Part shown: in pieces, positions 12,158-50,982 of the stretch
Layout of the letters: the number at the start of each line of letters is the position of its first letter
How positions within the stretch are numbered: the first letter of the stretch is position 1
NCBI GenBank assembly: GCA_004022145.1
Contig: RCNU01000013.1
Length of the DNA: 64,000 nt
Reading direction: 5' to 3' (one strand)
Source of the DNA: Paecilomyces variotii
Lineage: Eukaryota
Notes under the pieces: model-generated
Database searches by the model: none
Told to the model about the DNA's origin: nothing
The model's input: the letters and a program-made list of their open reading frames with translations, nothing else
Position numbers and translations under genes: made by a program

Positions 12158-12380
12158 TGGTACGAGTATAGAACATAGTTCTAATACTTACGTTGAGGCC
12201 GTATAAGCTTACAAGGTATATGTGAAGTTTGATTCTATGATATCACATGAATAATATTATGGTATAAAACCTCTAGGGGATGTTAATCTAAGGGACATAC
12301 CTGCAATAAGTCGCCTAACTTCACGTCTAATGAATCCTATACCCTGCTGATGACCGCGATATACAAAGAAAGAAACGCAC

Positions 12381-13628: not shown

Positions 13629-14133
13629 GGAGTCAATAATAATAGTTAGAGTCCGGGAACTCTGGAATTGTCTTCGAGTCTTGTATCGATGTCCTTTTCT
13701 TATCTTCAACTTTGATCTGCCAAGATTACCAATCGGTCCAGATGATGTCAGCGGAGAAGCAACGCGCCCTCGTGTATTTATTCGATCGATCCGATTGGCC
13801 AATGCCGTGCGCGTGCATAATTGACATAACTGCGGCTTTAAAATAATGGAATTGATTCTCTCCCACGTACGGTATTATTCTATTCTCATACATATTACAA
13901 GTACTGTGGCTGTCATATGAATGCAGTCTGTCAAAATTTGATTCCTATGCCGCCCAGATTGGAGAAATATTCGGCATGAATCGGTTTAAAAATACTCCAC
14001 AGCAGTTTGATAGCATATAATCTGCAGGCTAACCGCATGCGCCGAATAAGGAAGTAAAAGTCATGGTCATCACTCAGAGCCACTTATCGTGGGCACAAAG
14101 TTGGGGTATCAGGATATCACAGTATAGTTCCAA

Positions 14134-15529: not shown

Positions 15530-16299
15530 GGCGGAGGAGTTCTCTTTTCTTTTATCCGTGGAGCAACACCGCTCAGCTCGTCTTTTTTTTTTTTTTTTTT
15601 TTCGGTTGGTATAGCGTCTGTGTAGCAGCGCAGCCGTGTCAAGATGAGCGCCTCACCGAGTGCGTGCGGGACAGCTGGTAACTACTACTCAGTAGTAGAC
15701 TGGAGTGGAATGACGTGAAGGCGGAACCAAAGAGAAGGACAATTGAGCCCACTTTGTTCTCGAAACCAGACGGGCAACCAGGGGGCTGTCAAGATAGACG
15801 GTTGAGCAATTCCAGGCGGGCGGCGGATGTCTTTTATGCGTTCTGCATTGCGGTGAACTCGTGCAGCGTGTCGATTGGAGGTTGACGGAGCGGGGGAAGT
15901 TAGCAGGATGATTAATCTACAATAATAACTAATAACTAACTGACTATTATTCTAGCTTCCAGACTAAATAACTATCAACGTGAGTTAGAATTGCTATGGT
16001 CAAGAAGGAATTCATCCCGTGTGGTCAGGAATCCACCATCGAACCGGCAGGACTTTCCAGATCAACTTTGTTTTCCCCCGTTAACTATCTATCGTTGATT
16101 ATCATCAGACATTGTTTCATGCAAGGGCCCAACCATGTTGAATTAACAACTGACTCGCATGAAAGACCCTACGTCGAGTCCTCCAGGCAGCACCAATTTC
16201 GCTGGTTCTGTGGTCGGTGATTCCTTGATGATGTTTCATCCGCCGTGGAAAGCATCGTCATTTCCCTATTGCGCTCCCATGTGTGGCATGATGCCATGA

Positions 16300-17478
16300 T
16301 TAAAGAGAAAGGATAGGGTCAGTCAGGTCTGTTCGATCACTCGCCGTCTGTCTGCTCTCCAAGAGAGTCCAGGCCAAGTATGTCTGCATCTCCAGAGGCC
16401 GCCATCGATCCTTGGCATGGCCCAACATTCGAGCCAGATGGCCGTCGATCACGGTGATAGCCTTGTTAGCGTCCTTGGCTTTTGAGCAGATGTCTTCAGC
16501 GTCCTGAGCCGCCTTGAGGATGTATCGTATAGCTTCGGGATGCACCAGACGACGCTGCTGCTCCCATTCTCGGTCCGGTCCGCTCTGGACATCGCCTGCG
16601 TTGAGTCGGTCAATTCGCATTAACATCTTCCTCATACGCTGGCCCATGGAATCGAGGAGAACGTCGAGGGTGTTGGTCTCGACTTGAATAGTCTCCAGCA
16701 CAGATACGAGAGTTTCTGCGATGTTGATGCGGGTATCGATAACATCAGAAACTGCATCTGACGGGGTAACATCTTCTTCTAGTAGAATACCTAGCTGATG
16801 AGTATAGAGGACGATGGTCTCGTCGAGCTCGTGAGTGACGGCTGCTACTGTTTGTTCGTGCACCTCTTGGATTTCACATAGCTGTTCCGTGACGCAGTCT
16901 TGGAAGACCCGTCTTTGAAGCCCCCTCTTTTCATCACGTATCGCCTGCAGCGCACCATGGTTCTTCTCCGTTTGCGCATGCCTTTCTCGTTCCCGGAGGG
17001 CAGCGCGCTCCTGGGATCTTGCATATCTCTCCGTCCATCTCTCTTGTAATTTTTCCCGGGTCCATCGATCGTACGAGGCCAGGAACTGGGGATTCTGCGG
17101 TGAATCCTGGCCTATATACATGTCCTTGATCTCCTTGAGCTGCGACAGTCGTTGAATGAACTCCATCACCGGCTCTGGGTTCCCAGGATGCGCTTGCTTG
17201 TCTTGAAGCTTCTCATGGCAAAGCAGTCTCGTCTTCTCTACCAACCGTGCTAACACATGGTGTAGAGGCTCCGTAACCGGTGTTATGGAAACATCTATTT
17301 GTGCCTGTACCGTGTCCAGTAGATGCCAAAGCTGCTCCCATTTTTGGAAGGCGACAGCCTTGTCGCCGTCTAAGAGCCTCCGAACGATGTCTGTGGTGCA
17401 AGCACTTCTAGATCCATATTCTATCCTTTCACCCTCCTTGATGTTCTCCATCTTAACCGCTAGGAGATGTGCTTTCAC
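16300..17478 (-). CDS. Hypothetical alpha-helical/coiled-coil protein (~380-390 aa)
   Basis: Long ORF rich in E/Q/R/L with heptad character; no family recognised; start uncertain. Confidence 0.6.
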   Translation of the reverse strand: MKAHLLAVKMENIKEGERIEYGSRSACTTDIVRRLLDGDKAVAFQKWEQLWHLLDTVQAQIDVSITPVTEPLHHVLARLVEKTRLLCHEKLQDKQAHPGNPEPVMEFIQRLSQLKEIKDMYIGQDSPQNPQFLASYDRWTREKLQERWTERYARSQERAALRERERHAQTEKNHGALQAIRDEKRGLQRRVFQDCVTEQLCEIQEVHEQTVAAVTHELDETIVLYTHQLGILLEEDVTPSDAVSDVIDTRINIAETLVSVLETIQVETNTLDVLLDSMGQRMRKMLMRIDRLNAGDVQSGPDREWEQQRRLVHPEAIRYILKAAQDAEDICSKAKDANKAITVIDGHLARMLGHAKDRWRPLEMQTYLAWTLLESRQTASDRTDLTDPILSL

Positions 17479-24427: not shown

Positions 24428-26308
24428 CTACCATGTGAATGCCTCCTCGACAAAATCAATCACCATCCCGTGTCCCACTCTGCGGCGAGTAGCTGCTCGG
24501 ACTTCGTCTGCAAAGGCGCCAGGCCCGCAGACTGAAACTGCTGTTGCGCCAACACGCCGTGCTGCTACTTCATCCAACACCACATCAGGTCGACACCGGC
24601 CAGCAAACATTTGTACAGTTGCACTAGGGGAAATAATTTCGCGATTACATTTTGGCTTCGACACAAAGAGCTTGATAATGAGCATCTCGCGGCGGTTCGG
24701 CATCTGCAGAATCGAGTCCATGTATTGGCGCACCCATGCCAAATTCTCTGTACTGCGGACAGACCAGATCAAGTATATCTGTCTGGTAGCCACGCGCTCT
24801 TCTGAGGCACGGAATATCAAGTCGCGCACGTGTAGCATGTGATGGGTAATGCCAGCACCTCCAGAGAATAGGACGACAGTTCCATAGCTGCCCAACGAGG
24901 AAGGGTGGGATGCGTAAGGCCCTTCAATGTATCCCGCAATACGAAGTGTTTTCAGCGGCGAAGCAGCGGCCTTGTTGTAGAGTTTGCGAGTCATGCCAGT
25001 TCGAGCTGCAACGATCAATGACACCGTTGTCGGCTGTTTGCGGGTATCGAAAGGCTCCTCAAGATCAATAAAGGACTGCTTTTCGATACTCGAAGGACTT
25101 AGCATCCCATTATTCTCACGGTTGAGCAGAGCTGGCGGGAGTGCCGGTGGAGTCACACAGCTGAACGGTTCTACCCATGCAACAGAAAACGGATGAGACA
25201 TCCAAAGTGAGATGCTTGGAATATAAGCGTAAACATGACTCCCTGGATCAACGTGGACACGCTTCGGTAGATGGAAGGTCACACGGCAAGCTTCCCCAGG
25301 AAGAGCTTCGACAACAAGCTTTGTGCTGCCATTCTTCCGGGAGACGTTAAGATACAACAACCTTAACAGTCTAGTGCAGCGCTCAGTGACCCAGATCCCA
25401 ACGACAGCCTCGATCCATGGACGCTGGCGAAGATCGTCCAGTTTCAAATGGACGTAGACCCCGAGGATCGCCAATAAAGCAGCGAGCTGATGAAGATGTA
25501 GGAACGTCTCGTAAAAGGCATGACGGATTGGGGACGGAGAATGGGTAAGAAGGAAGGCCATTGCACATGTCCCCAAGAAACCCCAGGTAAAAAAAGGGGT
25601 GGTGCTCAGACGGTGCAACATATCATTAAAATCCTGTTCGTCACATGCATTTATGGCCCAAGCCACAGTGTGTGTGATGCTTTCCAGCGCGACAATGCGG
25701 CCCAGCCATCGATGTAGAAGATTGTAGGTATCGAAGCTCACATGGAGGAGCGGAATCAGTGGGTTGTTCCGACACGCAAGAATGAAAAGGGGGATCATAT
25801 TCAACACTGCTAGATTTCCAGATCTTCCTCGAAGTTCCGCGATCAGGGCTGCTTTCTCGTTGACCTTGTAGTCCAGGAAACCGCAATAGGCGATTTGACT
25901 CGAGACATACAACGTGATCAAAATGACGTGGAATCTTGACGGAACGGTCCCCATGTTGACCGCGCTCGAGAGTTGAATCTCTCTGTTGTGTCGTTTGCTT
26001 CCCAGAGGCGCATATAGAAGGTGTTTCTTGATGGTTGCCCATAGTCTAGACCCTTCGACTCCCCAGTACGTCTGTTGTCGTCTGGTGGCCGTCAGCGAGC
26101 TCAGTAAACGGGCATATACCAGGGTCATCTGGCCGATACGGCAACAGAGGACGACGACAGCCACAAGGGTCAACGAGGTGTATATGATCCGCGTAATGAG
26201 GACATCGAGAGGCACATCGACACCACCCAGTCCTCTGGAATATTCAAAAATGTAGGTCGCATTTGTTCCGTGCGGGCCGGAGGCTCGTGGCCCCGACAAG
26301 ATGCCCAT
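24428..26308 (-). CDS. Ferric/cupric reductase-like transmembrane flavocytochrome (FRE family)
   Basis: 626 aa; RNNPLI, YNLLHRWLGR, YETFLHLHQ (heme His), SHPFSV (FAD), EGPY, GGAGIT, WSVR, CGPGAFAD, EEAFTW. Confidence 0.93.
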   Translation of the reverse strand: MGILSGPRASGPHGTNATYIFEYSRGLGGVDVPLDVLITRIIYTSLTLVAVVVLCCRIGQMTLVYARLLSSLTATRRQQTYWGVEGSRLWATIKKHLLYAPLGSKRHNREIQLSSAVNMGTVPSRFHVILITLYVSSQIAYCGFLDYKVNEKAALIAELRGRSGNLAVLNMIPLFILACRNNPLIPLLHVSFDTYNLLHRWLGRIVALESITHTVAWAINACDEQDFNDMLHRLSTTPFFTWGFLGTCAMAFLLTHSPSPIRHAFYETFLHLHQLAALLAILGVYVHLKLDDLRQRPWIEAVVGIWVTERCTRLLRLLYLNVSRKNGSTKLVVEALPGEACRVTFHLPKRVHVDPGSHVYAYIPSISLWMSHPFSVAWVEPFSCVTPPALPPALLNRENNGMLSPSSIEKQSFIDLEEPFDTRKQPTTVSLIVAARTGMTRKLYNKAAASPLKTLRIAGYIEGPYASHPSSLGSYGTVVLFSGGAGITHHMLHVRDLIFRASEERVATRQIYLIWSVRSTENLAWVRQYMDSILQMPNRREMLIIKLFVSKPKCNREIISPSATVQMFAGRCRPDVVLDEVAARRVGATAVSVCGPGAFADEVRAATRRRVGHGMVIDFVEEAFTW

Positions 26309-28502
26309 CGAACCCTGTCACTCCAAAGCAGTAGAAATACACGACAGTGATGTAAAAACTCCTCCAAAACAGAGCTCACGACCAGCGCAAGACGAGCTTG
26401 TCAATGACAAAGCGAAAACTGGTAGAAATAAGGTATGCGGGAAGACCCGTTGATCGATAAAGACTCAAGACGTCACAACGAAGGTAATCGAAGAAATGAG
26501 ACTGTGCAGATGGTGCCTGTGATGCGTAGATATGGAATGCAAGGTGGTTGGGGACAACGAAAGGAACGCGGGGATCTACTCCGCTCAGTCAAGGGGTGCC
26601 AGGAGCCAGACAACCTCGATTCTCAGGCACAGGACAAATGGACGGAGGTTTCCTATTCAATAGCTGACCAGCTCCTATTGATAGGGGCGCCTTTTCTTTG
26701 TGTAGAATATAGTAGCTGTGTAGGTTCACGAGCTACGACTGGATGACTCCCCAAACAATGGGGTCACTGTAAAGAGCGGCAGGAATTCTCATTCCAGAGC
26801 AGTAGTTGTTTGGCGAACAAGGGGAGTCTAGAGGTATTGTAGGTCTAGCACTTCTGACCAGTGCCAAGTGTTACTTTATTAGTGTCATCAAGGACATAAG
26901 AATGGTGAGAATATACAAACCTCAATCTGCGATAGTTTATTCATAACAGAAATGATCTTCAAGTGTCAGGCACCGGGCTTGACGGACATGGAAGCGGCAG
27001 CAGTGGAGAGATTCAAAGAGGAAAAGCCAACAATGATGAACACCAAGCAGGATAAATACGGAGTAGAGGAGCCACAATACTGACAGTCTAGCAACCTTTT
27101 GAGGGAGAAGATATGATGCCAAGAGAGAGGGGACCAACAGTAATTTAAGCGTCGCTGAGTGAGAAAATCACCTTGCAGATAAGCCCACGGAAAAGGAACG
27201 GTCCGAAGCAGATGCTCTCGGGATGAGCTCTTCGAAGCCGCAGGAAGACATCATCTCCGTGAGTCTACTGGACCACGACAATTCACACGTCTCGCGCTGA
27301 AAGACGGCGGTGACCAGTAACTTCCAGTGGCTGCAAGCGATTTGAGGATGTCTGCCGTGGTATTAGCCGAGTATGTTGTGTACATACCGCAATACCCGTT
27401 GTACCGGCCCCAAATACGCCGCAAGTTCTCTATTTCCACTAAATAGTTTAACTTTCCACCACGCACTTCAGCTGCCCCCTGCGTTGTAGTCAAGCGACGA
27501 TCCAGCCTATCTATCGGTAGAACTCCAGATCACTGTCTTAAACCCTACCTAAGTAGTTGAAACAAGTCGCAAGTACTACTAGTTTGCCACCACACAAAGA
27601 TAGCCAGTATTGAACTACAGCTCGATAATCGAGTCTTATGGCCCTGAGAGCTGGAAGGGGGGAAACTGCCATGGATTCAGATAAGGTCAGTTCTATGGTC
27701 TAGAGAACTCCTAAAACCGATATAGGGCTTTCGTTTCAGCATCAAACCCCTCAAGAGTTGAAACCTCTGTTGTCGTTTCTCTTCTCCTTGACGAGATCGC
27801 TATGGCTACCGTATGGTTGGCTGTCGTTCTCTGCGCTTATTTCGTTTCGAAACACTGAAACAATCCACAACATGGCACACGGCTGTCCGACAACAATAAT
27901 ACCTTTTCCATCCGGCAAAAGTATGTCGATAAGATCTCTATTGCGTCCCTTCTTATTACTTACCTCGCATTCAGAGTAATATTGTCAGCCACGCGAGAAA
28001 TAAACACGAGTCATCTTCCCCTTATGCTGTCAGAGTCTGCAGTGTCGCACTTAGCAGTAGTCACAAGCTTCATATCAATGGTAGCCTAGCTTAGTAACAT
28101 CTCACAGCAATGGCCGGGCCCCCTCTAAAGACAGCAGAAGAATCTCTTTGCCTCTCAGAAGAAGTGAAAGACGAAGTGAGGTTGCATCGCGGGGCTACCT
28201 AGCCACCATCGTTAACATTACATCGCAGAGATCATATTCTCACAGAGGAATACATAATGATCGATTTACCTGTAGGATATTTTTTCACAGAAATTAAGCA
28301 GGAGTCAAATTAGCCCCCGAGACACTACTATAGGTCCTCGGTCGGTCCTGGCAGGAACAATGAGCAGCTATCATATAGTAATAACACCGTGATACTGTAG
28401 ATAGATCTATTTTCATGAATAGAATACATATCATGGTCTCTTGTAAATAATCAGTAGAGCTTCTTCAAGCTACACCTCGAGCATAATCCCACCATCAGCA
28501 TC

Positions 28503-37771: not shown

Positions 37772-39192
37772 TGTTGGTAGTACTTCTTTCCTTTCCGTCT
37801 GTCTTGCACAATAAGTATTCGCTAGTGTTCCTTTTTCTTTTTGTCCTGTTCCTTTCCCCACGAAATAGATAAATAGATAATCAAGCAAGCAAGTGAGAGA
37901 AAGATGCTAACTAGCTAGCTAGCAAACAAGAACAAAGAAGGAAGAGCGAACGAATGCATAGGTATAGGTCCCGTTTGCTGCTCCACGATCAGGTGCTAAT
38001 TAGCTAGCATGAGTAAGTAACCAAGTAGGTAAGTAAAGTGATGTGATGTGGAAAACGAAGCACACGGATTGTGTCAGTGGAGCTCAATTTAGTTAGCAGT
38101 ACAGAGTAGTAATTTACAATCCATCTGAGCTATTTACTCTAGAAGAAGTCAAGCTCAGATAGGTAAGTAATTTACGCATCGGCAATTGAAACAGTAAGTA
38201 GTATAGGACAACGTGGGGGTGGCTAATCAGGTGGTTTTGTTACCCCGCAGTGAGCGATACACAAAAGTCTGTACTCTAGAATAATATATCCACCGTTGTA
38301 ATTATCAGGGATAACGAATAAATCCAGCAATGGGATTGTATGCTAGATGTAATATGTCATGATCATCTGGTTTCCGAGTTTTCTTTTCTTGCATTGGCAG
38401 GGATGTAAGTAATATGGAATTACTCTGTCGGCTATCGAAATCCGCGCGGAGTTGGACTTGGATCTGTCGGTATCTGTCGGTATCAGGTGTAATGAATGGG
38501 AGATGGTTAAACCTCTCGGAGTGTTTCCGGAAATATGTTGAATGTTACAGATGATAATACTCTAACTAATGATCAGCCGCTGGGTAAAATATATGGCTAA
38601 TGTAATTCCCGTCTGGTAACTGTTGTTCCGCAGATTTGCTGGTCGACGGGGATTGTCGGTAACAATTGCAGTGTTGATATTGTGGTTGCAAGTGAGAGAT
38701 CAAGACAATAATTAAAAAGAGATGAATGTAGAGGACGTGCTTGAGAGGTTTTGAAAAATAAAAACTCCGTAAAGTAGTTAGATCAGATCCGGGGCAAAGT
38801 ACGCCGTCCATCTAATTATTACCCCACGCAACCGTCCGCCACTCATAGTGGATATTCGAAGCTGTCCTCAACGATCTCACCAACCGTCCGGGAATTGGAC
38901 GAGGTCTTCACGAGAAAGGCGGACTTGATGCGACACTAGAGAGTGAGGATTGCGAGGCCAGGCATGGATAAACTCGTGGAGGACGCGATTCCCCGTCCAT
39001 ACCCTGCGCTATCTTTTATTGCTCTCTCTTTGAATACAACTTGATCTTTGTTTTCTCCTTCAATATCTCCCTCTCTCTCTTTGCTTCACAATCTTCCTCT
39101 ATCCCTGGGTCGTGGCGGTAGATAGCTCACCCGTCCTTTGAAATCCTCTGTCTGGACTCCCCGCGTGACATCATTTCGAATATTCTTTCACG

Positions 39193-40603
39193 ATGTCGTC
39201 CCGAGCAGCCCTCCTCATCGGAAAGATCACCCACGCCCGGAAGGAGTGGGAGGCTCTCTCCTCGACCCTGACTCTCAAGGTGAGGTCGCCAGAATGCAGT
39301 CGAGAAACTAAGGAACATGCTGACCCAAAGGAACAGGAATACCCTGATGGGAACCGGGATGACTTTATCAAGAACTGCCAGAGCGGACAGTACGACGATG
39401 TCGTTGCCATCTACAGATCCAATGCCTCAAACAAGGTCTGAATAGTCGAGAACATGGAACTCCAGGAGGGCTAACAGCAGGCGGAAGGTAACGGGGCCCT
39501 TTGATGCGGAGCTCCTATCGGTTCTGCCAAAATCTCTCAAGTACATCTGCCATAACGGAGCTGGTTACGACAATATCGACATTGCTGCGTGCTCGCAGAA
39601 AGGTGAGGCATTGAGGCTTTTTTGTTTTGTTTTGTTTTTTGTCTATAGATTTCTTCGCAGTCTGCGGTCTACAAACCGGAGATGCTGGGGCGGCCAACCA
39701 GGAACTCATACTAATCGCTGTCCTGTCCCCCAGGTATCTCGGTTTCAAGCACTCCCGTGGCGGTCAACAACGCGACAGCAGATGTCGGCATCTTCCTCCT
39801 GATCGGTGCCTTGCGCCATGCTTATGTTCCTCTTTCCGCAATCAGAGAAGGTGGGTGTCTTTAACAGCAGTAGTCCACCCCAGACAACCAATACCTGACA
39901 TGCGATGGACAGGTAAATGGCAAGGACAGACCACCCTCGGCCATGATCCTCAGGGCAAGGTTCTGGGGATCCTGGGTATGGGCGGCATTGGTCGGGTAAG
40001 ATCTTATCATGCAACGAATATTGCGACAAGCGTTACTGACAGATAATACTAGGAAATGGCCCACCGTGCAAAAGCCTTTGGCATGAAGATCCAGTACCAC
40101 AACCGCTCACGGCTTTCTCCCGAACTAGAGGGAGGCGCTACGTACGTGTCCTTCGATGACCTACTGGCCACTTCCGATGTCCTCAGTTTGAACCTCGCCC
40201 TCAATGAGTCGACGCGCCATATCATTGGTGCCAAGGAGTTCCAGAAGATGAAGGAAGGCATTGTTATCGTGAACACTGCACGTGGCGCGCTCATTGACGA
40301 GAAGGCACTTGTCCAGGCACTTGAATCTGGAAAGGTATGACTCGTCAAATCTTGGATGTGACAAAGGTTGAATCTATGCTAAGCGTCGCATAGGTCAGCT
40401 CCGCAGGCTTGGACGTGTACGAGAACGAGCCCGAGGTCGAAGAGGGACTCCTGAAGAACCCGAAGGTCTTCTTGCTCCCTCACATCGGAACGATGACATA
40501 TGAAACTCAGAAGGACATGGAACTGCTCGTGCTGAACAACCTGCGCTCCGCGGTGGAGAAAGGAGAATTGATCACCCAGGTGCCGGAGCAGAAGAGTAGG
40601 TAA
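39193..40603 (+). CDS. gluD: D-isomer-specific 2-hydroxyacid dehydrogenase, probable 2-keto-L-gulonate reductase, multi-exon
   Basis: HNGAGYDNID, TADVGIFL, GILGMGGIG, YHNRSR, VNTARG, GLDVYENEP, LPHIGT. The gluD assignment is inferred from its divergent position next to the gluE-like gene. Confidence 0.8.
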
Positions 40604-41010
40604 CAAGAAGCTCAGCAATGAGGCAAATGGCAATTGAAATTTAAGAGATTTTCGGTGAAGGGGACGTGATGCTGGAGTATCTGGGGTCTTCATATTTCCC
40701 TGCAGTTATTTAGCATTATATTCGCGGGCTAGTTAGACCACCTAGATAGCAAATATGATTTCCCTTCCCATTCTAGGCGGACGGGGTGCTGCTTTATGCT
40801 CAGCGTTGTTCACGGAATACTGTTGATTATGGTGTACTAGCGGACTACTTTCCCATTTCGGCAGTCTGACTGCCAGGACTCACAGATTTGGAAACGGCCT
40901 TTGTTATTAATAGCTTCGGGTCGACAAAAGTACTTTGTAGGACAGAAAGATTCCTTGTAACTGAGATTCTCTACTATGATTTCTCTTTTAGTTGCGGAGC
41001 AGCAAGCGTA

Positions 41011-41368
41011 TTATCATACTCTTGAGTGACCACATCCATAACTAAACCCGGCTTCCTGAAGCGACCGGTGCAGCAGTTCGGTTGGTTCCGGTCTTAGTCC
41101 CATCATTGATAAGCTGCCGAGCATAGTTAATTTGAAGCTTCTTAGAAAGTTGCGGGTATCTATAATTCTTCTCAACGAAGTGAACGGTAGTTACTTACTT
41201 ACCTCCAGATGTCTACATTCCACGTGACCGGGGACACTTTCCTAAGACTATGAATTGGTGTGTGCTGATAATCAATCATTAACGAGGGGCGATTATGATT
41301 TTCTTATCTAGTTGGGTCTGTTTTAGCGTACGCAAAGGGCGATATTACACCGGTATGGTGAGAGATAA
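41011..41368. promoter_or_regulatory. Cluster of AreA-type HGATAR motifs upstream of the dioxygenase
   Basis: TTATCA 41011, TGATAA 41107 and 41266, TTATCT 41304, AGATAA 41363. Confidence 0.5.
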
Positions 41369-41476
41369 GAAGAATGACTGATATACTACGTAGGTATCTT
41401 GCTGCATCGCAATTTGATATAAGGAAGACGACGAGTCTCATTATTTATTTGGTTTTTGTGGACAGGAACTATCATC

Positions 41477-42541
41477 ATGCCTTCAGCCATTGCCCCTGCA
41501 AGTCTTCGTCGTGTTGATTTTAACGACCTTGACAAGGTCATCTCTACAATTGAACAGGACGGTGGTGTGATCCTGACTGGATTCACGACTCCCGAAGTGG
41601 TCGCGCAAGTCAACTCGGAGGTTGAGCCTTACTTGAATAACGACAAGCCTTGGAAGGTTAGTTAGTATATGCCAAATTGCCGAAACTTCCTCTTTTCCTA
41701 GCTCACCATGTCGACGGCAACAGGGCAAGCTTTTCCCTCCAGAGACCCGCCGTTGCACACGACTGTTAGGCCGCAGCAATACAGCTCGTCGCGAATGGGT
41801 CGGCAGCGATAGACTATTCGATATCCTAAACCATTTCCTGTCCAAAACCACTACTATTTTCTACGATGATGTACCAACCACGCACACAACCCTTCCCATC
41901 TTGTCCACAGCGGCCACGATTGATGTCAGACCAGGAGCCATTGGCCAACGCATCCATCGAGACGACAAGGTTCATCATGTTGACCATGAGGACATGACCA
42001 GCACTGGCTATAAGCTGGGTTCGGACGTTAGTATGTCGCTTTTGGTCCCTGGTGTCGAATCTACAGAGGAGAACGGTGCCACATTGGTAAGTTGACAAGC
42101 GGAGCTTTTCCTTTCACCGCGCCCCCAAAAACACCAAACAGGACTAATTAGAAACAAAATCAGGTCTTACCTGGCTCCCACCTTTGGGGAGACAAGCGTG
42201 CTCCTCGCCGAGAAGAAGCCTCCCGGGCGACCATGGTCCCAGGCGAAGCGCTTCTGTTCCTAGGCTCCATGTATCACGCTGGCGGCGCTAATCAGAGCAC
42301 CAGCACCAACCGTCCAGTGCACGGCTTGTTCTTCTGTCGCGGTACGCACCGTGCAGAGGAGAACTTCTACCTCGAATTTCCCACGGAGGAGGTTCGCTCG
42401 TGGACGGAGAAGGAGCAAATTCGTACTGGGTACAATATCTCGTCTCCGAATCTGGGCTTTATCGACTTCGTCAGTCCTATGCATATTATCAATGGTAGAT
42501 GGAAGCCCGACGAGGCTCAATACTATGAGGATTTGGATTAA
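41477..42541 (+). CDS. PhyH-family 2-oxoglutarate/Fe(II) dioxygenase; introns 41657-41723 and 42087-42163
   Basis: DGGVIL, QRIHRDD (HxD), ENGAT.VLPGSH, GSMYHAGGAN (distal His), downstream Arg, EENFYL. Confidence 0.9.
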
Positions 42542-43359
42542 GCATGAGAGAGACATTGTATGTATGTACATACGTCACTCTTCAAGATGGACATGAGATT
42601 AACAGCACAATATCTATATATCCGAAAACTGTATGTCGCTGTTTCATTCTTGCAGTAGTCCTTCGACTAGTAGTTCTGTAGGATGATGGCCGTACCATAG
42701 ATCGGAAACAGTAAACATCACATACTTAATGAGTGCTCACATTTACATCTCTTATATCTGTAAGCCACAGAGGCAAGACAAAAATCAAGCTTTTTATATT
42801 ACAGGTTTGATTTATCATCCGTATTTACTGGAAGCAATACCAAGTTGGTGGATGCTGTAAGGAAATATGCGCAGAACTGGAAAACACCTGTACTTAATGC
42901 CCGTGTTTCCAAATAGCTGAGCCGAAGAAACAACGCACTAATTAGGTAGCTCACTAACATCGTGGTTGATAATAAAAAGAAACCTAGCATCATACGGAGT
43001 GATCCGATGTGCCCAGTCCAGGTGAAGGAATCTGATCGAATTAGAGTAACCTTATTGGACAATTCTTTCTGAATCCTTATCTTTTGGAATTCCTCTAGAC
43101 ATTTGCCTTCGATTGCAAGCAAACGCGTGCCTGGTCCGCTCCCCATTTTACAAGATTGGCAAGCAGAACCGGCGATAGAAGCAGAAAGCCTACTTAGTCG
43201 CTTGTGTGATGGAGCACCAATCACATATATAATGAATGATGAGTGTCCGATACGGTTGGGATTACTCTGAGACTGTTTTGTACCATTCAATACACTGCGC
43301 TGACATTGATTTTGTTTCTATTTCCGAGTTACTGGGAACATACTACCACAATCATCGAA

Positions 43360-44374
43360 ATGAGCACCACGACGACGACGGCGACACCAACTTTGACTAC
43401 TCAGTCCAAGAAGAGGGCTGGTTTGGTTGAAGATGCCAAACTTTTACAACATCCCGTTGAAAAGACCGGCATTGCAGCAATATCACAAGGCATGATGCTC
43501 CCAGGCATCCCATCATTTACAGACATGGACAAGAAACGGCGTTGGATGCTTGAGCACATGGCAGGAGCCTTCCGGATATTTTCTCGCAAGGGATTTACAG
43601 AGGGCATGAGCGGCCACATCTCGCTTCGAGATCCCGAACATAGCAACCTCTTCTGGACCAACCCGTGAGTTTCTCCTCCAGCATTGGAGGTTCACTGAAT
43701 TAACTTATCCCAGGCTTGGTATCCATTTCGGCCTCATCAAGGCTTCAGACATGATTCTGTTAAACCATGACGGCGAGGTAGTAGGCGGCAACAGATCTCG
43801 GCCCGCAAACGCGGCTGGTTTTCAGATTCACAGCGCACTACACAAGAGATACACGCACGTAAATGCCGCTTGTCATGCTCATACAGTTAATGGCAAGGCG
43901 TGGTCTGCATTCGCAAGGCCGCTCGAGATGATTAACCAGGACGTCACCATGTTTTACGGGGATGCCCAAGCGGTGTATAAGGATTTCGGGGGTGTAGTCT
44001 TGACTCCAGAAGAAGGACGACGATTAGGAACTGCTCTCGGCCCCCGAGGGAAACTGCTTATTCTTCGCAACCATGGTCTCCTCACTGTGGGCCACACCGT
44101 CGACGAGGCTGCCTACCTCTACACTCTGGCAGAGCGGAGCTGTGAGATTCAGCTCAAGGTGGAGAATGCAGCCGCTGCTGGGAGTCCAAGAGTCTTGATT
44201 GATCGGGATGCCGCCGAGTTTACGTTCAAAATGACAACTGACCCTGTAGGGATTCCTTTCCCCCATTCCCGAAAAAGTTCAAGCTAACAGTGCCTCTAGG
44301 AGGCAGTTTATTGCGAGTTTCAGCCAGACTATGAGTATGAACTAGCTGTCTCTGGGGGCGACTTTCTTCAATGA
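43360..44374 (+). CDS. Class II aldolase/adducin-family protein, 3 exons
   Basis: EGMSGHISLRDPE, FWTNP, AAGFQIHS, ACHAHT, ILRNHGLLTVG metal-binding motifs. Confidence 0.92.
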
Positions 44375-44528
44375 ACATTTCGATTGGAGGATGAGAGCAA
44401 GCAGAAAAGAAATGCTGTCCCTCGCCCTTTTCAGAGTATATTAGCTTCATTGTTGTATAAAGCTTATGTGTTAATTATGGATATACCTTTGGGCCATTGA
44501 ATGATGTAATTCACTAAGGCTCTGTAAC

Positions 44529-46705
44529 TCAGATAAAATATAGTGGCGACTTTTGCTCGATCAGCTCAGGCCAGCTCACATTAGCCGCACTTGCCTCTTG
44601 TCTTCTGGTCCAGATTTGCTGTGCAATCTGATGAGCGACGTGGAATGTCTTGATCCCACTCCGTTTGGCACAGGTGCTAAACCAGGCCGAGAACTTTTCC
44701 TGGGTTGCCTGATCTAGTGCTTCGCACGCAACTATAAAGCCTGTCCATGCGAAAGGGGCCGCACACTCTCTTGCGTCCTCTTTGAGTTGTTCCCACTCAA
44801 GCAAGTACTCGAGCGCTTCCGCAACACGGTCTTGTAGTATAAATGGATCAATATCGTGAATTATGCGATAGAAGTAAATAATCAGTGCCTGGTGCATCGC
44901 ATGAAGCATACAATCGACCAGTCGGTGATTTAAAGCTCCCAATGCATCGGATATAGAGGTATTATTGGGTTCAGGATAGCCGGGCACTGTCGGTTCCCAA
45001 CTGCAGACGCATTTCTCCAGGATCTTGGCCCGGAATAGATATTGTTTCCATGTCAGTTTACTATCGTTGGGAGTTCGTTGTAGGGTGATCCTCTCATTTG
45101 CGAGTCTCAATGTCTCGGATAGCATCACCAGGAAAGACTCAGGAAGGCCGTACATAGACGGGTATAACGTCGAATCCCATCGACCAGGAACGGCTAGGAG
45201 AAGATCGTTTTCTCCAAGGTCAGATTCCTTATTCATCAGAAGCCTTTGGTCCAATCGACCATCCCATTTCTGAACTCGTAAAGGAGACTTGTCTACGCAT
45301 CGCTCTGACGGTTGTGAAGACTCAATCTCTTGCTCAGCGGAAGCAAAAACCGTCGTCTCGTGCATCACTCGCATGTAAGCATAGCAGTGGTGCAAGAGTC
45401 TGACTTTGCGAGACTTGTGTCGCTTTGGGAGTCCTCGCTGACGAATGAGTTTCTCAGCATCAAGGAGGTAGCACCTAGTGTGCTTCCAGAGACCGCTAAA
45501 TATCTATACATATATGATTAATGATTAGTCCTTGACTGTATTCCGGCCCAGAACCAAAGCTTCTAGGTGGTCCTTACGGAAGCGGTTGTCATGGATAGCA
45601 GAGTCATCAGTATCTCCTTATATTTTGCTTTTTTTGGTGGGGACTTTTGGGCTTCGTCTTTCAATGCCAGCTTCAGACTCTGCTGGGCAATGCTGAAGTA
45701 ACGTTCTGATCTGTTATTCCAATATTGGTTTGCAGCTGCGAATACAGTGTTTCCCAAATGGGATGCACTGGTAGCAAGGATAGCACTGAAAATGCAAAAG
45801 CTAGCATTGTTAGGAGATTTACCCAGAGTTAGAGTAGCAAGAGTATTCATGGCACTCGGAAGAAACATGGTTTGCCACGGACTTTTTCTATACTGCAGTG
45901 GCGACAAGAAGTTGATGACGACATCGCGGTAGTGGGACAGTAGGAACGTAGCATCGGGAGGCACAAGACTGATAGAGGACATAGGTAATGACGGCGTAAA
46001 CGCCTCGTTCGGCCAGATATCCCCATTCCCAAGATCGATTTCGGATGTAAGCATCGCCTGATCAGCTTGATGGTCGCATAATAGGTCTAATGGGGAAGAC
46101 AATTCCTCGTAAGAGAAGTCCTTATCACTCTCGAGATCAACGCCATCTCCGAGAAACTCATTACGGTCCAAGAAAACAGCTGTCTCTATGATTTGCGCCG
46201 CAAAGGGATCAATTGGGGCAACCGGGGTCATTGAGCTTGAGGGTGTGTCAGAGGAAGCCGGGTCAACCGCATGAGACGCCGAGTTTTCCAGACTGAAGAC
46301 ACCGAATGGTCCTTGAACGATGTCGATATCTCGTGGAGCTGGCTCGTCGCGTTCGAATCCTTCAAAGTCCAACAGCGAGAGGATTTCGTTAACAGTCCGC
46401 GGGCAAGACAGAATGAGTTGCTCGCTCATCGATTGCCGCCCCAGCTCGGTGTAGAGGGGTCGGCGAAAAAGAGGGCCATTGTGCGCAGTATCCTTGATGC
46501 AGTCGGCAGTGGATTCGCAGCCCTCGAAGATGAAGGAAATGCGGGCGTCATAGCCAGCACATTCCAGACCAAGACGTTCACAAACTTGACAGCGAGGCCG
46601 CGTCTCGTCACACTTGTTGTGTCGCTCGCGACAGGTGGAGCATCCTCCCATAGACCGACTGCGTTGCGCTGCGGCTGTCCCTCTTCTTCTGGTAACTGAA
46701 GTCAT
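44529..46705 (-). CDS. Zn(II)2Cys6 transcription factor, Arg81/ArcA-like; one intron ~45504-45576
   Basis: GCSTCRERHNKCDETRPRCQVCERLGLEC; KSPWQ, KYKEILM, LIRQRGLPKRHKSRKVRLLHH, MYGLPESF, ALIIYFYR. Confidence 0.9.
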
Positions 46706-47039
46706 CTCGTGGCTGTGTCTCTTTCAATAGGGAATCCTTGCCTCATGGATTCTATCAAGTATTATTATCCAAGGTAAAAGATGCCTCTCTGGATATTGAC
46801 TGGATTGTTAAAAATCCTAAGGAGCAGAATATCCCGTGCGACAGTTGGGTGAGTGCTCTAGAGAGCCGATATCTTTAGATAGGAGATAAAGTAAAGAGGC
46901 AAGTCATCCCGGAACCGCGATAACCATGGAGCAGCCGGCTTTTCTTCATATTGTTTTCCATCTTAAATTACTCGACGATAGCGAGGGAAAATGATCGAAA
47001 GTGAATCCGGATTTAAGAAAAGAGAAAATATGAAAAGAA

Positions 47040-48220
47040 ATGGCTGACAAAGCGAATGTTCTTCTTGTTGGCTGTGGTGGTATAGGCACCATTTCGGCGC
47101 TGAATCTGGAGATTGGCGGACGAGCTACAGTGACTGCCGTGCTGCGGTCCAACTACGATGCCGTACAGGCCAAGGGATTCCACATTCGATCTGTTGATCA
47201 CGGATTGATTGAGAACTTTCGCCCAACCGCAAGTATGCTCACATGGCAACCCGAAATCATCTGCTCGTTACATGTTATCGCTGACTTCATATGCAGTTAG
47301 AAACACAGTGCCCGACATCAAGCAGGAGGGAACTACACCATTCAAGTACATCGTGTGTACGACAAAGAATGTGCCCGATGTACAACCGACGTTGGTGGAT
47401 ATCATTCGTCCAGCCGTCACTCCTGGCTATTCCAACATTGTGCTCATTCAAAATGGTCTTAACATCGAGCGGCCCGTTATCAAAGCGTACCCTGAGAATG
47501 TTGTATTGTCTGGTGTGAGTTTCTGTGGCTCCCACGAGATCTCGCCGGGCGAAATAGTCCACGAAGATGACGACGAACTATATATTGGTGCTTTTCGCAA
47601 CCCATCTCTAGATGCCACGGCCGAGGATGCCGCAGCACAAGACTTCGTGGCTAGATACGGCGCTGGTGGGAAATGTAAGCCGGAATACAGCCCACACGTG
47701 GGCTTCACGAGATGGCGCAAGCTGATGTATAACGCCTGTCTCAACTCGATCTGTGCGGCTACAGGCCTTGATACTGGAAGGCTCCAACTCGCTGATGGCG
47801 CTTTGGATGGCCTGGTTCGGCCAGCCATGGAAGAGATCCGGACCGCGGCCAAAGCTTGTGGCCACGATCTGCCTGCTGAGCTGGTGGAGCTCATGATTCG
47901 TCTCGATCCCATTCCCATGTACAATCCACCCAGTATGCTGGTGGATATCAGAAAAGTAAGTTCTAGCTTTGAGATGCTAAGTCGGCAAATATAAAGATGT
48001 AATAACTGATTCTGCACAGCGTCGATATTGCGAGTTCGAGGTTATTGTCGGTGAGCCCCTAAAAGAAGGTGCCGCCAGGGGTGTCCCGATGCCGACGCTC
48101 AGGGTCATATACAACATTTTGAAGGCATTTCAGTGGAAACTCAAGGAAGAGAGAGGTCTAGTCGAAATCCCCGCCCCCAAGGACTTCACGAACACGGCAA
48201 ATGGAACGGTAACTGAGTAG
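47040..48220 (+). CDS. Ketopantoate reductase (ApbA/PanE)-family oxidoreductase, 3 exons
   Basis: LVGCGGIG, LRSNY, CTTKN, IQNGLN, RWRKLMYNA, PSMLVD, EFEVIVGEP. Confidence 0.9.
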
Positions 48221-48544
48221 TAGATATAACCAAACGGCAATATGAAATCTTATGTACCAAAAACCCTAACTAGCTGATCAGGAAAAGTTTTGGAATGCAT
48301 CATGTTGCCAAGGATAAATTGAATAATTCGCATCATTTTAGAATCGGGGTGATCTATGAGCCGTGAGTAGGTAGGTGTATAGATAAGCGACTCTGTCGCT
48401 GAGTACGAAGCACTGGAAGCATTTCAAGCCCAAGTTGGTCTGGGGTTATAAATGAACTTTTTATTGGATTTCTTGTGGATACTACCAAAAGGCACAGTGT
48501 TTGACATATATGGTTGCCGTATGTTGCCCAAACCCGCCGTTTTC

Positions 48545-48930
48545 GGCTATAGGTAACCATCAATACCATATTTGCTACCCTCGCCAGATCCCTTGATCTT
48601 CCTAGCCACTACAGCAGCCGCGGTTATTTCCAGCTCCGCGTCATGAAACTGAAGACGGAGCTCCTTAGAAGTATCACTACATTGATTAATCATGATCTTG
48701 CCCACTCGTGTGGAGCCTGTAAACGTTCTCTTCCAAAACCGATTCGGACTCGAACAACAACTTGCCGATCTTGGATGTGTTCTGAAGTGCAGTCAATATA
48801 CATGACTACATCTGCAAGCACTCCTGTGCACTTTCCAATTACGGTTAAGGCATTTGCTGAACAGTTGTGCTGCCTCAGGGAGTTCGTCTGGCTAGCCTGG
48901 AGGCTTCAGGATCTGTATCCTACAGCAAAC
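48545..48930 (-). pseudogene. Heavily deleted aldehyde dehydrogenase (SSADH-like) pseudogene (not in ORF track)
   Basis: Manual translation: SANALTVIGKCTGV, NTSKIGKLLFES, FTGSTRVGKIMINQCSDTSKEL, FHDAELEITAAAVVA, IKGSGEGSKYGIDGYL*, in collinear order. Confidence 0.82.
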
Positions 48931-49137
48931 CCAGCGTCAATCGACAACTGAAATACAATGTGGTTGGAATAACGTTAAGATTTGATGTTAACATCAAGTT
49001 TACAGATAAATAGAAATCAGTTGAACTAGTTCAAGATGTAAAAATAGAGTCTTACAAATTCTAAACCCTATGCCCGGTTGTAGATCTAGAACTGGAATGA
49101 CAGTAAATATCTAAATCTGATATGCCGCCCGAGCATA

Positions 49138-50982
49138 TTACAGTCTAGCCGAGTCTTTAGTTAAGTCTGCCAGCACTTCGGTCGCCCCTCTCTCTCCACT
49201 ACGGATGGCTCCCTCCATGTAACCCTTCCATTCACCAGCCGTCTCTGTACCGACGAAATGCACATCGCCGGATGTCTCTCGCAGCGCGTCACCAACCGTA
49301 TCAAGCACGCCTGGGCCCATACAAATGCATGGACAACCCCAGCCAGCAAACTCATCTGTCAACCAATCGTAGTGGAGGGTTTGAACAAGGTTGCCCTGAA
49401 GGGTTGGCTCTGGCTCATTGAACAATGTGCTGACTTGCTGTAGCAGTCTCTTTTTGCGCTCTTCGGCCAGCAATTGAGCCCAGGCTCGACCAAAATCCCC
49501 AGCGAGGAAGCAAGTCAGCACATGCTTGTCATCCTCAGGACTGGAAGTATCGCGGATTAACGAAGCAGGCCCAACAAATGATTGCGCTAAGCCGCAGAAA
49601 CCTTTTGCAATCCAGAATGGAGACTTGAAGACCAGCAAGACCTTGGTGTAGTAGCCGTACGTGGTTGAGTCTACTAAAATCTTCTTCTCGAGTGACAGCG
49701 GCGGCGAGAACTCAATCGTCCTGAGAACCGGCGTGGCTACGGAACAGATGACCTTGCGAGCTATGTAGGCACGTGGTCCATCCTGTCCAGAGACATGGAC
49801 TTCAACGGCGCGGGAGATTACCTGACGTATAGATTTGACGCGGGTGGAGAGGCGTACTACACCTTCAGGCAGCCTTGCTGCGAGCTCTTTGGCCAAGAAC
49901 TGGGTTCCCTGACGAATGCGCAGGTACTGCCCGCCATCTTTCCGATCAGAGCGCATTTGAAGCAGCCCGCCACCAGATTTGCAGTAGTTGAGGAAGTAAA
50001 GTGCCGAGATGTCGCGAGGCTCTTGGCCAAGCATTGCCCGTGACCACACCGTCGCGGTAGCGAGGGCCTCCCTTGAAGCGCCTTTGGAACGCAGGTACGC
50101 TTCAAAGGTGAGTGAGTCGAGATAAGTATCTCGCGGCTGGAATGTATCAACGGCCAAGCAGTCCGCCTGAACAGTGTCTCGGATCGCAGCGACGTCCTTG
50201 ACGGTAAGTTCGTCGAACGGTGGAAGTTCGCCGTACGGGAAAGTACTGCAGGACCCGTCAAAGCTCTGAAGAACACAGTCTCCGTTCGAATTCTGCAGAA
50301 TGAGTTCGGCATTGAACCGTTTCGCCAGGGCGTACGCGCGACTCTGGTTGGTATCGTTGATCCAGGCCGCTCCGAGCTCGACCACGCCGGTTCCGATGTT
50401 TAATGGTGAACTCCAAGTCTTACCACCCACTCGATCTCTGGCTTCGAAAACCACACAGCTTAAGCCGCTCTTGAGAACATTCTCAGCTGCCGTAAGGCCG
50501 GATAGCCCGCCACCTATAACTATAACATCTATGACTTCAGCAGAGTGGAGTCGAGAAGTTGGCATCCGTGGTGCCGGGACCAGAGTAGTGGATGGACCGG
50601 CAACAGCGGCATCAATCTCGATCAACCATTCCGGGAGGGCGAGCTGCTGAACGGGCACCAGAGTCATCGCTGGACGATGGCCTCTCAGGAATCGTTGAAT
50701 GTGGCGCACATGTTTTCGTTCTGCTGGATTGTAGTTGACAATATAGATGTTGATTTTGGCAATATGATGAATGGATGCTCCCGCAGCGTAAATGAGTTTC
50801 TTCAAATTCAGCAGAGCCAGGTGAATCTGTGACTCGTAGTCTGAGGGTACGTGGCCATCCTTGCTCGTGCCAGGCTGGCCAGACATGTGAATCAGACTGC
50901 TGCTGCTTTTCGAGACAGTAACTGGCGCATAATACGCTGCCTTGGTGTTGGACAGGTCCACTTGCTCGACAAGTTTAGCCAT
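49138..50982 (-). CDS. Fusion of an N-terminal Rid (YjgF/YER057c) domain and a flavin-containing amine oxidase; C-terminal PTS1-like ARL
   Basis: IHMSGQ, QIHLALLNL, LIEIDA (Rid); VIGGGLSG, EARDRVGG, LGAAWIND, HFVGTET..WKGYMEGAIRSGERGA (MAO family). Confidence 0.93.
   Translation of the reverse strand: MAKLVEQVDLSNTKAAYYAPVTVSKSSSSLIHMSGQPGTSKDGHVPSDYESQIHLALLNLKKLIYAAGASIHHIAKINIYIVNYNPAERKHVRHIQRFLRGHRPAMTLVPVQQLALPEWLIEIDAAVAGPSTTLVPAPRMPTSRLHSAEVIDVIVIGGGLSGLTAAENVLKSGLSCVVFEARDRVGGKTWSSPLNIGTGVVELGAAWINDTNQSRAYALAKRFNAELILQNSNGDCVLQSFDGSCSTFPYGELPPFDELTVKDVAAIRDTVQADCLAVDTFQPRDTYLDSLTFEAYLRSKGASREALATATVWSRAMLGQEPRDISALYFLNYCKSGGGLLQMRSDRKDGGQYLRIRQGTQFLAKELAARLPEGVVRLSTRVKSIRQVISRAVEVHVSGQDGPRAYIARKVICSVATPVLRTIEFSPPLSLEKKILVDSTTYGYYTKVLLVFKSPFWIAKGFCGLAQSFVGPASLIRDTSSPEDDKHVLTCFLAGDFGRAWAQLLAEERKKRLLQQVSTLFNEPEPTLQGNLVQTLHYDWLTDEFAGWGCPCICMGPGVLDTVGDALRETSGDVHFVGTETAGEWKGYMEGAIRSGERGATEVLADLTKDSARL

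Follow-up and report, generated by a model that had tools for sequence, protein, structure and literature searches.

A candidate oxygenase-regulator-reductase module inside a five-gene locus of Paecilomyces variotii

The subject of this analysis is a 64,000-nucleotide stretch (the window) of contig RCNU01000013.1 from the Paecilomyces variotii assembly GCA_004022145.1, and within it the locus at positions 41477-50982, in which an initial annotation had seen six contiguous loci forming an undescribed pathway for the catabolism of a nitrogen compound. Open reading frames (ORFs), splice-site reading and homologue comparison show that five intact genes are present there, and these encode a PhyH-family 2-oxoglutarate (2OG)/Fe(II) dioxygenase, a class II aldolase-fold protein, a Zn2Cys6 transcription factor (TF), a reductase of the ketopantoate reductase family (KPR-like) and a fusion of a Rid domain with an amine oxidase (Table 1). 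Sequence comparison suggests that the stretch is not one conserved unit and that its core is the trio of aldolase-fold gene (a putative oxygenase), TF and reductase, acting as one module across Eurotiomycetes and Dothideomycetes with non-conserved flanks, a reading to which we would give a probability of roughly 0.55.

Gene models were built from stop-to-stop ORFs combined with splice-site reading and comparison with homologues, and a Pfam scan of 15 ORF pieces gave matches in nine, with each family assignment supported. The outer limits of the locus coincide exactly with the two outermost ATGs, and several features reported by the initial annotation were recovered unchanged, namely the D-isomer 2-hydroxyacid dehydrogenase gene upstream, RPL17 (Ribosomal_L22) downstream and an embedded regulator divergent from the reductase. 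The putative oxygenase and TF genes are convergent, and the TF and reductase genes diverge across a 334-bp spacer. Identity to deposited P. variotii proteins is 97% for the amine oxidase, 99% for the aldolase-fold protein and 100% for the reductase exon compared (exon 2, against P0241). The count of six loci stands for the five intact genes at their given coordinates and is not upheld for the sixth, a supposed aldehyde dehydrogenase (ALDH) relic between the reductase and the oxidase. The sole trace of it is the 11-residue motif FTGSTRVGKIM, for which the Pfam Aldedh (PF00171) match is below threshold (E 0.2, 10.6 bits against a cut-off of 23) and spans only 25 residues, and a six-frame scan of the seven other ORFs in the 917-bp spacer (48221-49137) gave no Pfam match.

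Table 1. Genes and other features of the locus and its borders (window positions)
Feature	Position	Strand	Exons or evidence	Product or remark
Class II aldolase-fold protein	43360-44374	+	43360-43664, 43714-44245, 44300-44374	303 aa
Zn2Cys6 regulator (TF)	46705-44529	-	46705-45578, 45503-44529	700 aa
KPR-like reductase (ApbA/PanE family)	47040-48220	+	47040-47232, 47297-47955, 48020-48220	350 aa
PhyH-family 2OG/Fe(II) dioxygenase	41477-42541	+	41477-41656, 41724-42086, 42164-42541	306 aa; introns read from sequence
Rid-amine oxidase fusion	50982-49138	-	single exon	614 aa
Intron in KPR 5' leader	46771-46818	+	GT..AG joint 46770>46819 in RNA contigs X11, X14	48 nt
TF 3' untranslated region (3'UTR) intron	44485-44426	-	joint in RNA contigs X11, X14	
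Doubtful ALDH remnant	48550-48792	-		motif in 81-codon open frame
D-isomer 2-hydroxyacid dehydrogenase	~39.2-40.8 kb			upstream flank gene
RPL17 (Ribosomal_L22)	~51.9-52.6 kb			downstream flank gene

Linkage of the orthologues in other genomes, on which the idea of a six-gene cluster had been staked, gave a split result, in that the aldolase-fold, TF and KPR-like genes are linked elsewhere and the PhyH and Rid-amine oxidase genes are not. Linkage was read indirectly, from positional locus tags and accession numbers, from contig sizes and from one scan of metagenome contigs. The best matches of the aldolase-fold and KPR-like proteins come from shared taxa, comprising Aspergillus section Nigri, some other Aspergilli and many Dothideomycetes. 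In five species of Aspergillus section Nigri (A. niger, A. tubingensis, A. luchuensis, A. awamori and A. eucalypticola) and in the Dothideomycete Aplosporella prunicola a single gene lies between the two, their accession or tag numbers being exactly two apart; for A. niger this holds for An12g10120 (aldolase-fold) with An12g10100 (KPR-like) and for 14 further accession pairs, and CBS63078_8959 with CBS63078_8957 is likewise such a pair. Tags differ by one in A. nanangensis, where the two genes are adjacent, and in P. variotii DTO164E3 the aldolase-fold, KPR-like and amine oxidase genes carry tags 6557, 6559 and 6560, respectively. Both enzyme genes lie on contigs of equal size in A. sclerotioniger and in A. 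ibericus, and both were found on a single 5167-bp Logan contig and on a single 29256-bp JGI contig.

The metagenome scan, made with an alignment of reductase relatives, reduced 278 pattern matches to 159 confirmed relatives and to 80 loci that were kept and searched by tblastn with the five proteins of the window. One of these (L002) carries the aldolase-fold gene on the plus strand at 429-1001, the TF on the minus strand at 1015-2967 and the KPR-like gene on the plus strand at 3507-4612, reproducing the order and orientation of the window in less than 4.6 kb. Among the ten closest loci a divergent TF stands beside the KPR-like gene in six of the seven that have at least 1.6 kb of upstream flank, or in five of six distinct loci, L006 and L007 being identical in the KPR segment compared. 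The TFs at this divergent position are relatives of the window's own (L002, L003, L005, L006/L007 and L008), and L009 has upstream a Zn-cluster factor of a different type (Fungal_trans) oriented as the reductase gene. A maximum-likelihood tree of 34 KPR pieces, made up of the window and those 33 of the 80 loci whose upstream flank reaches 2.5 kb or more, placed the window, L002 and L003 in one clade with support of 100/97, all of them TF-adjacent, and none of 500 label shuffles was as clustered on the tree as the observed TF adjacency. Counterparts of the window's upstream 2-hydroxyacid dehydrogenase, zinc alcohol dehydrogenase, short-chain dehydrogenases/reductases (SDRs) and second TF were not found near the KPR-like gene in the 80 loci, the sole exceptions being weak SDR matches in L003 and L035.

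The product of the aldolase-fold gene had been taken for a class II aldolase, and the fold is well supported: Pfam Aldolase_II (PF00596) matches at E 1.1e-32, with exon 2 alone scoring 113.8 bits against a cut-off of 22.2 and the N-terminal part of the profile falling in exon 1. The premise of a true aldolase is weakened by the closest relatives of established function, which are oxygenases. Among solved structures the best match is 9n43 (9e-55), a class II aldolase/adducin-domain protein without a name, followed by TqaM (5e-52) and NovR (4e-30), and the classical fuculose-phosphate aldolases 6btd and 4c24 match at only 6e-6 to 6e-5. By eye the core of the protein is about half identical to 9n43 and to TqaM, in the latter case over 177 residues. 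The metal-binding histidines are retained (CHAHT, an HxH motif, and NHG) and align with those of TqaM, 9n43, 4xxf and NovR; the asparagine of the RPxN motif (RPAN) and a QD pair are kept as well, and SGH is present in exon 1. According to the published sources TqaM has the class II aldolase fold and works with non-haem iron (PMC13351049, PMC12006828); it oxidatively decarboxylates 2-hydroxy(-3-amino) acids, accepting the 2R configuration only (PMC13351049, a 2026 review). Its His3 metal site binds the carboxylate and 2-hydroxyl of the substrate, and the substrate-binding residues are S72/G73/H74, N123 and Q166/D167 (PMC13351049), all of which have equivalents in the aldolase-fold protein; the comparison covered these six residues and left out W271 and E275. 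The "aldolase" is a putative Fe(II)-dependent oxidative decarboxylase of the TqaM/NovR/CloR kind, as far as its sequence relationships indicate. Homologues in section Nigri and in Dothideomycetes are 70-77% identical, and the last exon was recovered through comparison with A. niger P0128. The deposited NCBI models of this P. variotii gene range from 290 to 314 aa, and one of them (P0121) reads through the last intron (44246-44299), giving a wrong C-terminus; the 303-aa model ends in ...GGDFLQ and has the C-terminal motif EFQPDYE...FLQ in common with the A. niger ortholog.

The reductase matches ApbA over coding exons 1-2 and ApbA_C over the last two exons, its N-terminus shows VGCGGIGT, and the closest solved structure is 3i83, a bacterial 2-dehydropantoate reductase (1.7e-21). 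It is predicted at family level to be a two-domain NAD(P)H-dependent 2-oxoacid reductase, and its accessory, TF-linked context would argue against a housekeeping role in pantothenate synthesis. The Pfam content of the TF is Zn_clus plus Fungal_trans_2, a pair also carried by Arg81, so that the earlier description of the factor as Arg81-like is upheld at the level of Pfam families only. A promoter search of four upstream regions found a CGG-N6-CCG dyad in two of them (PhyH and aldolase-fold); no 8-mer was common to the four, and there was no CGG dyad in the region upstream of the oxidase. Footprinting of the TF-KPR spacer across ten loci yielded k-mers common only to L004, L005, L006 and L008, which are near relatives of one another.

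Evidence of transcription comes from two RNA runs, X11 and X14, whose spliced contigs are 100% identical to the window and whose joints confirm three introns, one in the TF gene (45504-45577) and two in the reductase gene (47233-47296 and 47956-48019). Contigs carrying the KPR leader intron start at about 46050-46089, inside the TF coding region, and run into the KPR exons, and the divergent TF and reductase transcripts therefore appear to overlap head to head (46050-47040). Further X11/X14 contigs (43281-45793) are continuous from TF exon 2 through the 3'UTR intron and across the whole aldolase-fold gene, a pattern expected if the TF transcript has a long antisense extension at its 3' end or if the sense RNA is unspliced. 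The same runs gave no contig cover over 40868-43202, the region of the PhyH gene, or over most of 48340-48806, and low cover over the amine oxidase; assembled contigs of this kind cannot show absence, level or ranking of expression. Two other runs labelled as RNA (X17 and X18) gave contigs that are unspliced over the cluster and run through intergenic DNA, with joints only at the RPL17 introns, and they were used solely as the sequence of a related strain.

The two outer genes of the locus are not conserved together with the core. The PhyH gene matches its Pfam family through exon 3 (E 1.4e-7, 32.5 bits against a cut-off of 22), exons 1 and 2 giving no Pfam match when scanned alone, and the iron triad can be read from the translation as HRD in exon 2 and a later histidine in YHAG. 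The closest solved structures are NvfE (1.6e-11) and SwnH1 (2.3e-8). The subfamily is small, a search of 1.84 billion proteins with exon 2 yielding no more than 148 cluster representatives at E<=1e-3. The homologue in section Nigri is 53% identical and unlinked to the module in A. niger (An13g02050 against An12g10100/10120; CBS63078_1418 against CBS63078_8957-8959), and A. tubingensis and A. eucalypticola likewise show it separated from the trio. Contigs of different size carry the PhyH and oxidase homologues of A. mulundensis. PhyH is in these terms a flank gene outside the conserved core, found at this place only in Paecilomyces. A metagenome contig from another fungus (L034) nevertheless unites, in less than 11 kb (6172-16667), a class III aminotransferase, a PhyH homologue (42% identical to that of the window), a KPR paralogue (47%), an amino-acid permease and a Zn2Cys6 TF of the same Fungal_trans_2 subfamily (28%, 134 bits); L036 shows the same matches at the same coordinates. 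Because the PhyH subfamily is so small, this contig was taken as single but real support for an association of PhyH, reductase and TF with amine metabolism, and PhyH may supply or modify the substrate of the module in Paecilomyces and in the organism of L034. That contig is also a candidate amino-compound cluster in its own right.

The Rid-amine oxidase at the other end of the locus is, as had been reported, a genuine fusion with both domains present. Its Rid domain matches Ribonuc_L-PSP (PF01042) at E 4.7e-15 (56.1 bits against a cut-off of 27.3), and its oxidase domain matches Amino_oxidase (PF01593) at E 1.6e-55 over profile positions 1-443 of 443, with GGGLSG present. The closest solved structure to the oxidase is a monoamine oxidase (MAO), 8p84 (6.5e-52), the matches also including human MAO-B and the cyclohexylamine and putrescine oxidases; L-amino acid oxidases match far more weakly, and by these similarities the domain is MAO-like. 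The premise that the Rid domain hydrolyses imines fares less well. In alignments with TdcF and 5yu2 the position of the catalytic arginine (PxRS) falls on the methionine or threonine of HRPAMTLV, and in the corresponding column of the window protein and 120 homologues arginine occurs in 0 of 121 sequences (isoleucine in 72, methionine in 33, glutamine in 11, valine in 3 and threonine in 2); the 26 Rid sequences inspected for it all have an arginine two to three residues upstream (HRPA). The Rid domain is therefore probably not an imine deaminase, to judge from its residues. No characterised fungal Rid-amine oxidase fusion was found in the literature. Bacterial Rid genes cluster with FAD amine oxidase genes (PMC4433059, Niehaus et al. 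2015), and the likeness lies in the association of a Rid domain with a flavin amine oxidase, here in one polypeptide; the bacterial partners, RidA or Rid3, have the catalytic arginine, whereas the fungal fusion has I, M, Q, V or T in 121 of 121.

The distribution of the fusion also sets it apart from the core. It is widespread in Pezizomycotina, with several paralogues per genome, and the best match outside Paecilomyces is only 62-64% identical. It was found near the KPR-like gene in none of the 80 metagenome loci, 30 of which have a downstream flank of 2.5 kb or more; a homologue lies elsewhere in the genome in A. nanangensis, Tolypocladium paradoxum, Neonectria punicea, A. japonicus and Thozetella, and the best matches of the oxidase are in other taxa than those of the module genes. 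Within P. variotii the oxidase is polymorphic, with 614-aa, 559-aa and 498-aa forms (P0002, P0420 and P0428 compared). The 498-aa allele, present in two strains, is collinear to residue 498 and fits a 4-nt deletion at 49480 that was seen in the contigs of a related strain, and the 559-aa allele (clusters P0002 and P0428) is without 55 residues of the FAD-binding region. In the strains with a shortened oxidase both core enzymes, the aldolase-fold protein and the reductase, are full length. The oxidase gene is thus decaying in part of the P. variotii strains; being broken in some of them it is dispensable, and it is a flank gene outside the core, at most an optional addition and at this place only in Paecilomyces. 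In a related strain, moreover, 7 nt are deleted in the start-codon region of the oxidase (50982).

A number of observations weigh against a core of three genes acting together. The spacing of tags in the Aspergillus and Aplosporella loci shows only that one gene separates the two enzyme genes. The best aldolase-fold and KPR-like matches are on different contigs in six Dothideomycete species (of Baudoinia, Saccharata, Neodothiora, Oleoguttula, Meristemomyces and Pleomassaria); these split matches may be paralogues, yet the aldolase-fold gene often occurs without its partner. Three of the metagenome loci with TF and KPR-like gene (L003, L006 and L007) have no aldolase-fold gene in 5.5-9.8 kb upstream. 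Both aldolase-fold introns are left unspliced in the RNA contigs, so that sense expression of the gene is not demonstrated. With regard to the chemistry, 4xxf, deposited as a fuculose-1-phosphate aldolase, matches the aldolase-fold protein at 1.5e-39, and the residues held in common with TqaM are also found in 4xxf (and NovR), so that they are non-discriminating and do not prove oxygenase chemistry. Finally, the PhyH gene of L034 stands beside a KPR paralogue, and PhyH may after all belong to the functional unit.

The last of these points leads to the explanation closest to what had first been proposed, that the five Paecilomyces genes together break down an amine or an uncommon amino acid along a single route, in which the oxidase would deaminate, the dioxygenase hydroxylate, the aldolase-fold enzyme cleave or decarboxylate and the reductase handle an oxo intermediate under control of the TF. 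We regard this as unlikely. The genes are contiguous, their order is kept in P. variotii strains (6557/6559/6560 and equivalents) and in the collinear contigs of a related strain, which are about 97% alike, and a CGG-N6-CCG dyad stands upstream of both the PhyH and the aldolase-fold genes. The habit of bacterial Rid genes of clustering with FAD amine oxidase genes (PMC4433059) points the same way, and so does L034 with its aminotransferase, PhyH homologue, KPR paralogue, permease and related TF; with no more than 148 representatives in this PhyH subfamily, chance is an unlikely source of a second neighbourhood of PhyH and KPR genes, a rough estimate being a few percent over about 30 loci. These points have to be set against PhyH homologues unlinked to the module in three Aspergilli (A. 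niger, A. tubingensis and A. eucalypticola), an oxidase absent from all 80 KPR loci and located elsewhere in five taxa, with best matches in different taxa from those of the module genes, truncated oxidase alleles (498 and 559 aa) beside full-length neighbours, a Rid domain without catalytic arginine, and promoters of which that of the oxidase has no dyad and the four have no common 8-mer. A nitrogen-catabolic role for the whole stretch accordingly keeps the L034 combination in its favour and has lost the linkage of its two outer genes, with its aldolase and Rid premises weakened. Taken as a whole, what had first been observed holds for the most part and its interpretation in part, the object of interest being smaller than was thought and of a different chemistry.

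The trio could instead serve a secondary-metabolite cluster, in tailoring or in precursor supply, or be left over from one, and not be catabolic at all. In A. niger it directly adjoins An12g10090, a predicted secondary-metabolite backbone gene, and falls within a cluster annotated by hand that spans An12g10000-An12g10160 (PMC3689640); for two of the genes in the locus the closest characterised proteins (TqaM and NovR, NvfE and SwnH1) are natural-product enzymes, and KivR, of the KPR family, serves cyclodepsipeptide synthesis (PMC3478992). The limits of the A. niger cluster were, however, set by synteny only, and the module occurs without a backbone neighbour in two fungal classes. The large ORFs scanned in the window contained no domain of a polyketide synthase (PKS), nonribosomal peptide synthetase (NRPS) or terpene synthase, and there was none in the scanned ORFs of L002, L003, L004, L006, L009 and L010, where ORFs of at least 90 aa were taken and 76 of the 154 listed were scanned, being the longer of overlapping ones. 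Such an origin seems quite improbable to us, and less still can be said for the view that there is no functional unit and that ordinary accessory metabolic genes have become neighbours by chance, which we consider highly unlikely. Singleton oxidoreductases and Zn2Cys6 factors are indeed abundant in fungal genomes, and beyond the TF-KPR pair every locus examined differs (GATA factor, dienelactone hydrolase, Wbp11, SDR, NmrA), but the trio has the same order and orientation in different classes of Pezizomycotina and TF adjacency follows the KPR phylogeny.

If the aldolase-fold gene, TF and reductase do act as one module, a plausible course of reaction would start with the KPR-like enzyme reducing a 2-oxo acid with NAD(P)H to the (R)-2-hydroxy acid, the D/(R) product being that which KPR-family enzymes yield. 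The TqaM-like oxygenase would hold this compound at its His3 metal site by the carboxylate and the 2-hydroxyl group and, with O2, remove C1 as CO2 to leave an acid one carbon shorter, and the TF would switch on both enzyme genes from the shared 334-bp promoter region. A more speculative extension, which we hold to be rather improbable, is that the trio represents an undescribed fungal route for the one-carbon shortening of free carboxylic acids without CoA or thiamine, to which a PhyH-type 2-hydroxylase and an amine-removing enzyme have been recruited in some lineages. The 2-hydroxy acid would then arise either by PhyH-type hydroxylation or by KPR-type reduction, the latter setting the 2R configuration, and the TqaM-like iron enzyme would oxidatively decarboxylate it.

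Several known systems resemble parts of this scheme. Peroxisomal alpha-oxidation, which consists of PhyH, 2-hydroxyacyl-CoA lyase and aldehyde dehydrogenase, likewise has a PhyH-family hydroxylase followed by C1 removal from a 2-hydroxy acid derivative, and possibly an ALDH. The Paecilomyces locus, by contrast, lacks both a CoA ligase and a thiamine-dependent lyase, the candidate for C1 removal is an O2-dependent iron enzyme, the ALDH trace is non-significant and the linkage of PhyH is not conserved. TqaM, which acts with TqaL and TqaF in fungal 2-aminoisobutyrate/isovaline biosynthesis, has in common with the aldolase-fold protein the class II aldolase fold and the His3 metal site, and the gene here, like that of TqaM, adjoins a 2OG/Fe(II) dioxygenase gene in the Paecilomyces genome. 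The aldolase-fold protein nevertheless belongs to a separate ortholog group, with its own orthologues at 70-77% identity; TqaL is aziridine-forming, whereas the neighbouring dioxygenase is PhyH-type and closest to NvfE and SwnH1; no HAD-family match was found among the 41-51 kb ORFs, TqaF being a HAD-type hydrolase; and the conserved partners here are a KPR-like reductase and a TF, of which there is no mention for TqaM in the available parts of the sources cited above. NovR and CloR, from Streptomyces aminocoumarin pathways, belong to the same superfamily (NovR 9ryg, 4e-30) and differ in being bacterial, with an identity judged by eye at about 38%, and in belonging to an antibiotic cluster in which they have no reductase partner. 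CloR performs two oxidative decarboxylations in succession, the first on a 2-oxo acid and the second on a 2-hydroxy acid. For the reductase the nearest parallel is KivR of enniatin/beauvericin producers, a fungal, NADPH-dependent KPR-family enzyme that converts a 2-oxo acid, 2-ketoisovalerate, to the 2-hydroxy acid hydroxyisovalerate (PMC3478992). It differs in supplying an NRPS, none being present at the KPR-like locus.

As had been asserted from the outset, no described pathway with this gene set was found in the literature, and a search on An12g10100/10110/10120 or on an aldolase-reductase pairing gave nothing relevant, although the papers behind 9n43 and TqaM and the supplements of PMC3689640 may bear on it. 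The enzyme families are known; their conserved pairing with a dedicated regulator appears to be undescribed. To our knowledge oxygenases of the TqaM, NovR and CloR type are known only from a few antibiotic and mycotoxin pathways. The stable position of a close TqaM relative next to a KPR-family reductase and a dedicated regulator, in lineages that range from Paecilomyces and the black Aspergilli to a Dothideomycete, points to a widespread and uncharacterised piece of fungal primary or accessory metabolism, and the proposed reduction followed by decarboxylation lends itself to study in A. niger (An12g10100 to An12g10120) or in P. variotii. Were the one-carbon shortening to be true, its reactions applied to 3-amino substrates would turn beta-amino acids into alpha-amino acids, a catabolic counterpart of the TqaM reaction with a link to nitrogen use. 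Two annotations are corrected as well: an oxygenase is the probable identity of the "aldolase", and imine deamination is an improbable role for the "Rid" domain. The intact and truncated oxidase alleles of P. variotii also provide a natural experiment for the idea of nitrogen catabolism.

Some observations concern the surroundings of the locus. The upstream D-isomer 2-hydroxyacid dehydrogenase gene (39100-40800) has six introns, every one of which is confirmed by RNA joints, and its product, like the KPR-like enzyme, would make or use D-2-hydroxy acids. Farther away in the window lie genes for a cation efflux family protein (14345-15652) and a ferric reductase (24431-26317), which are metal-related and unrelated to the module.

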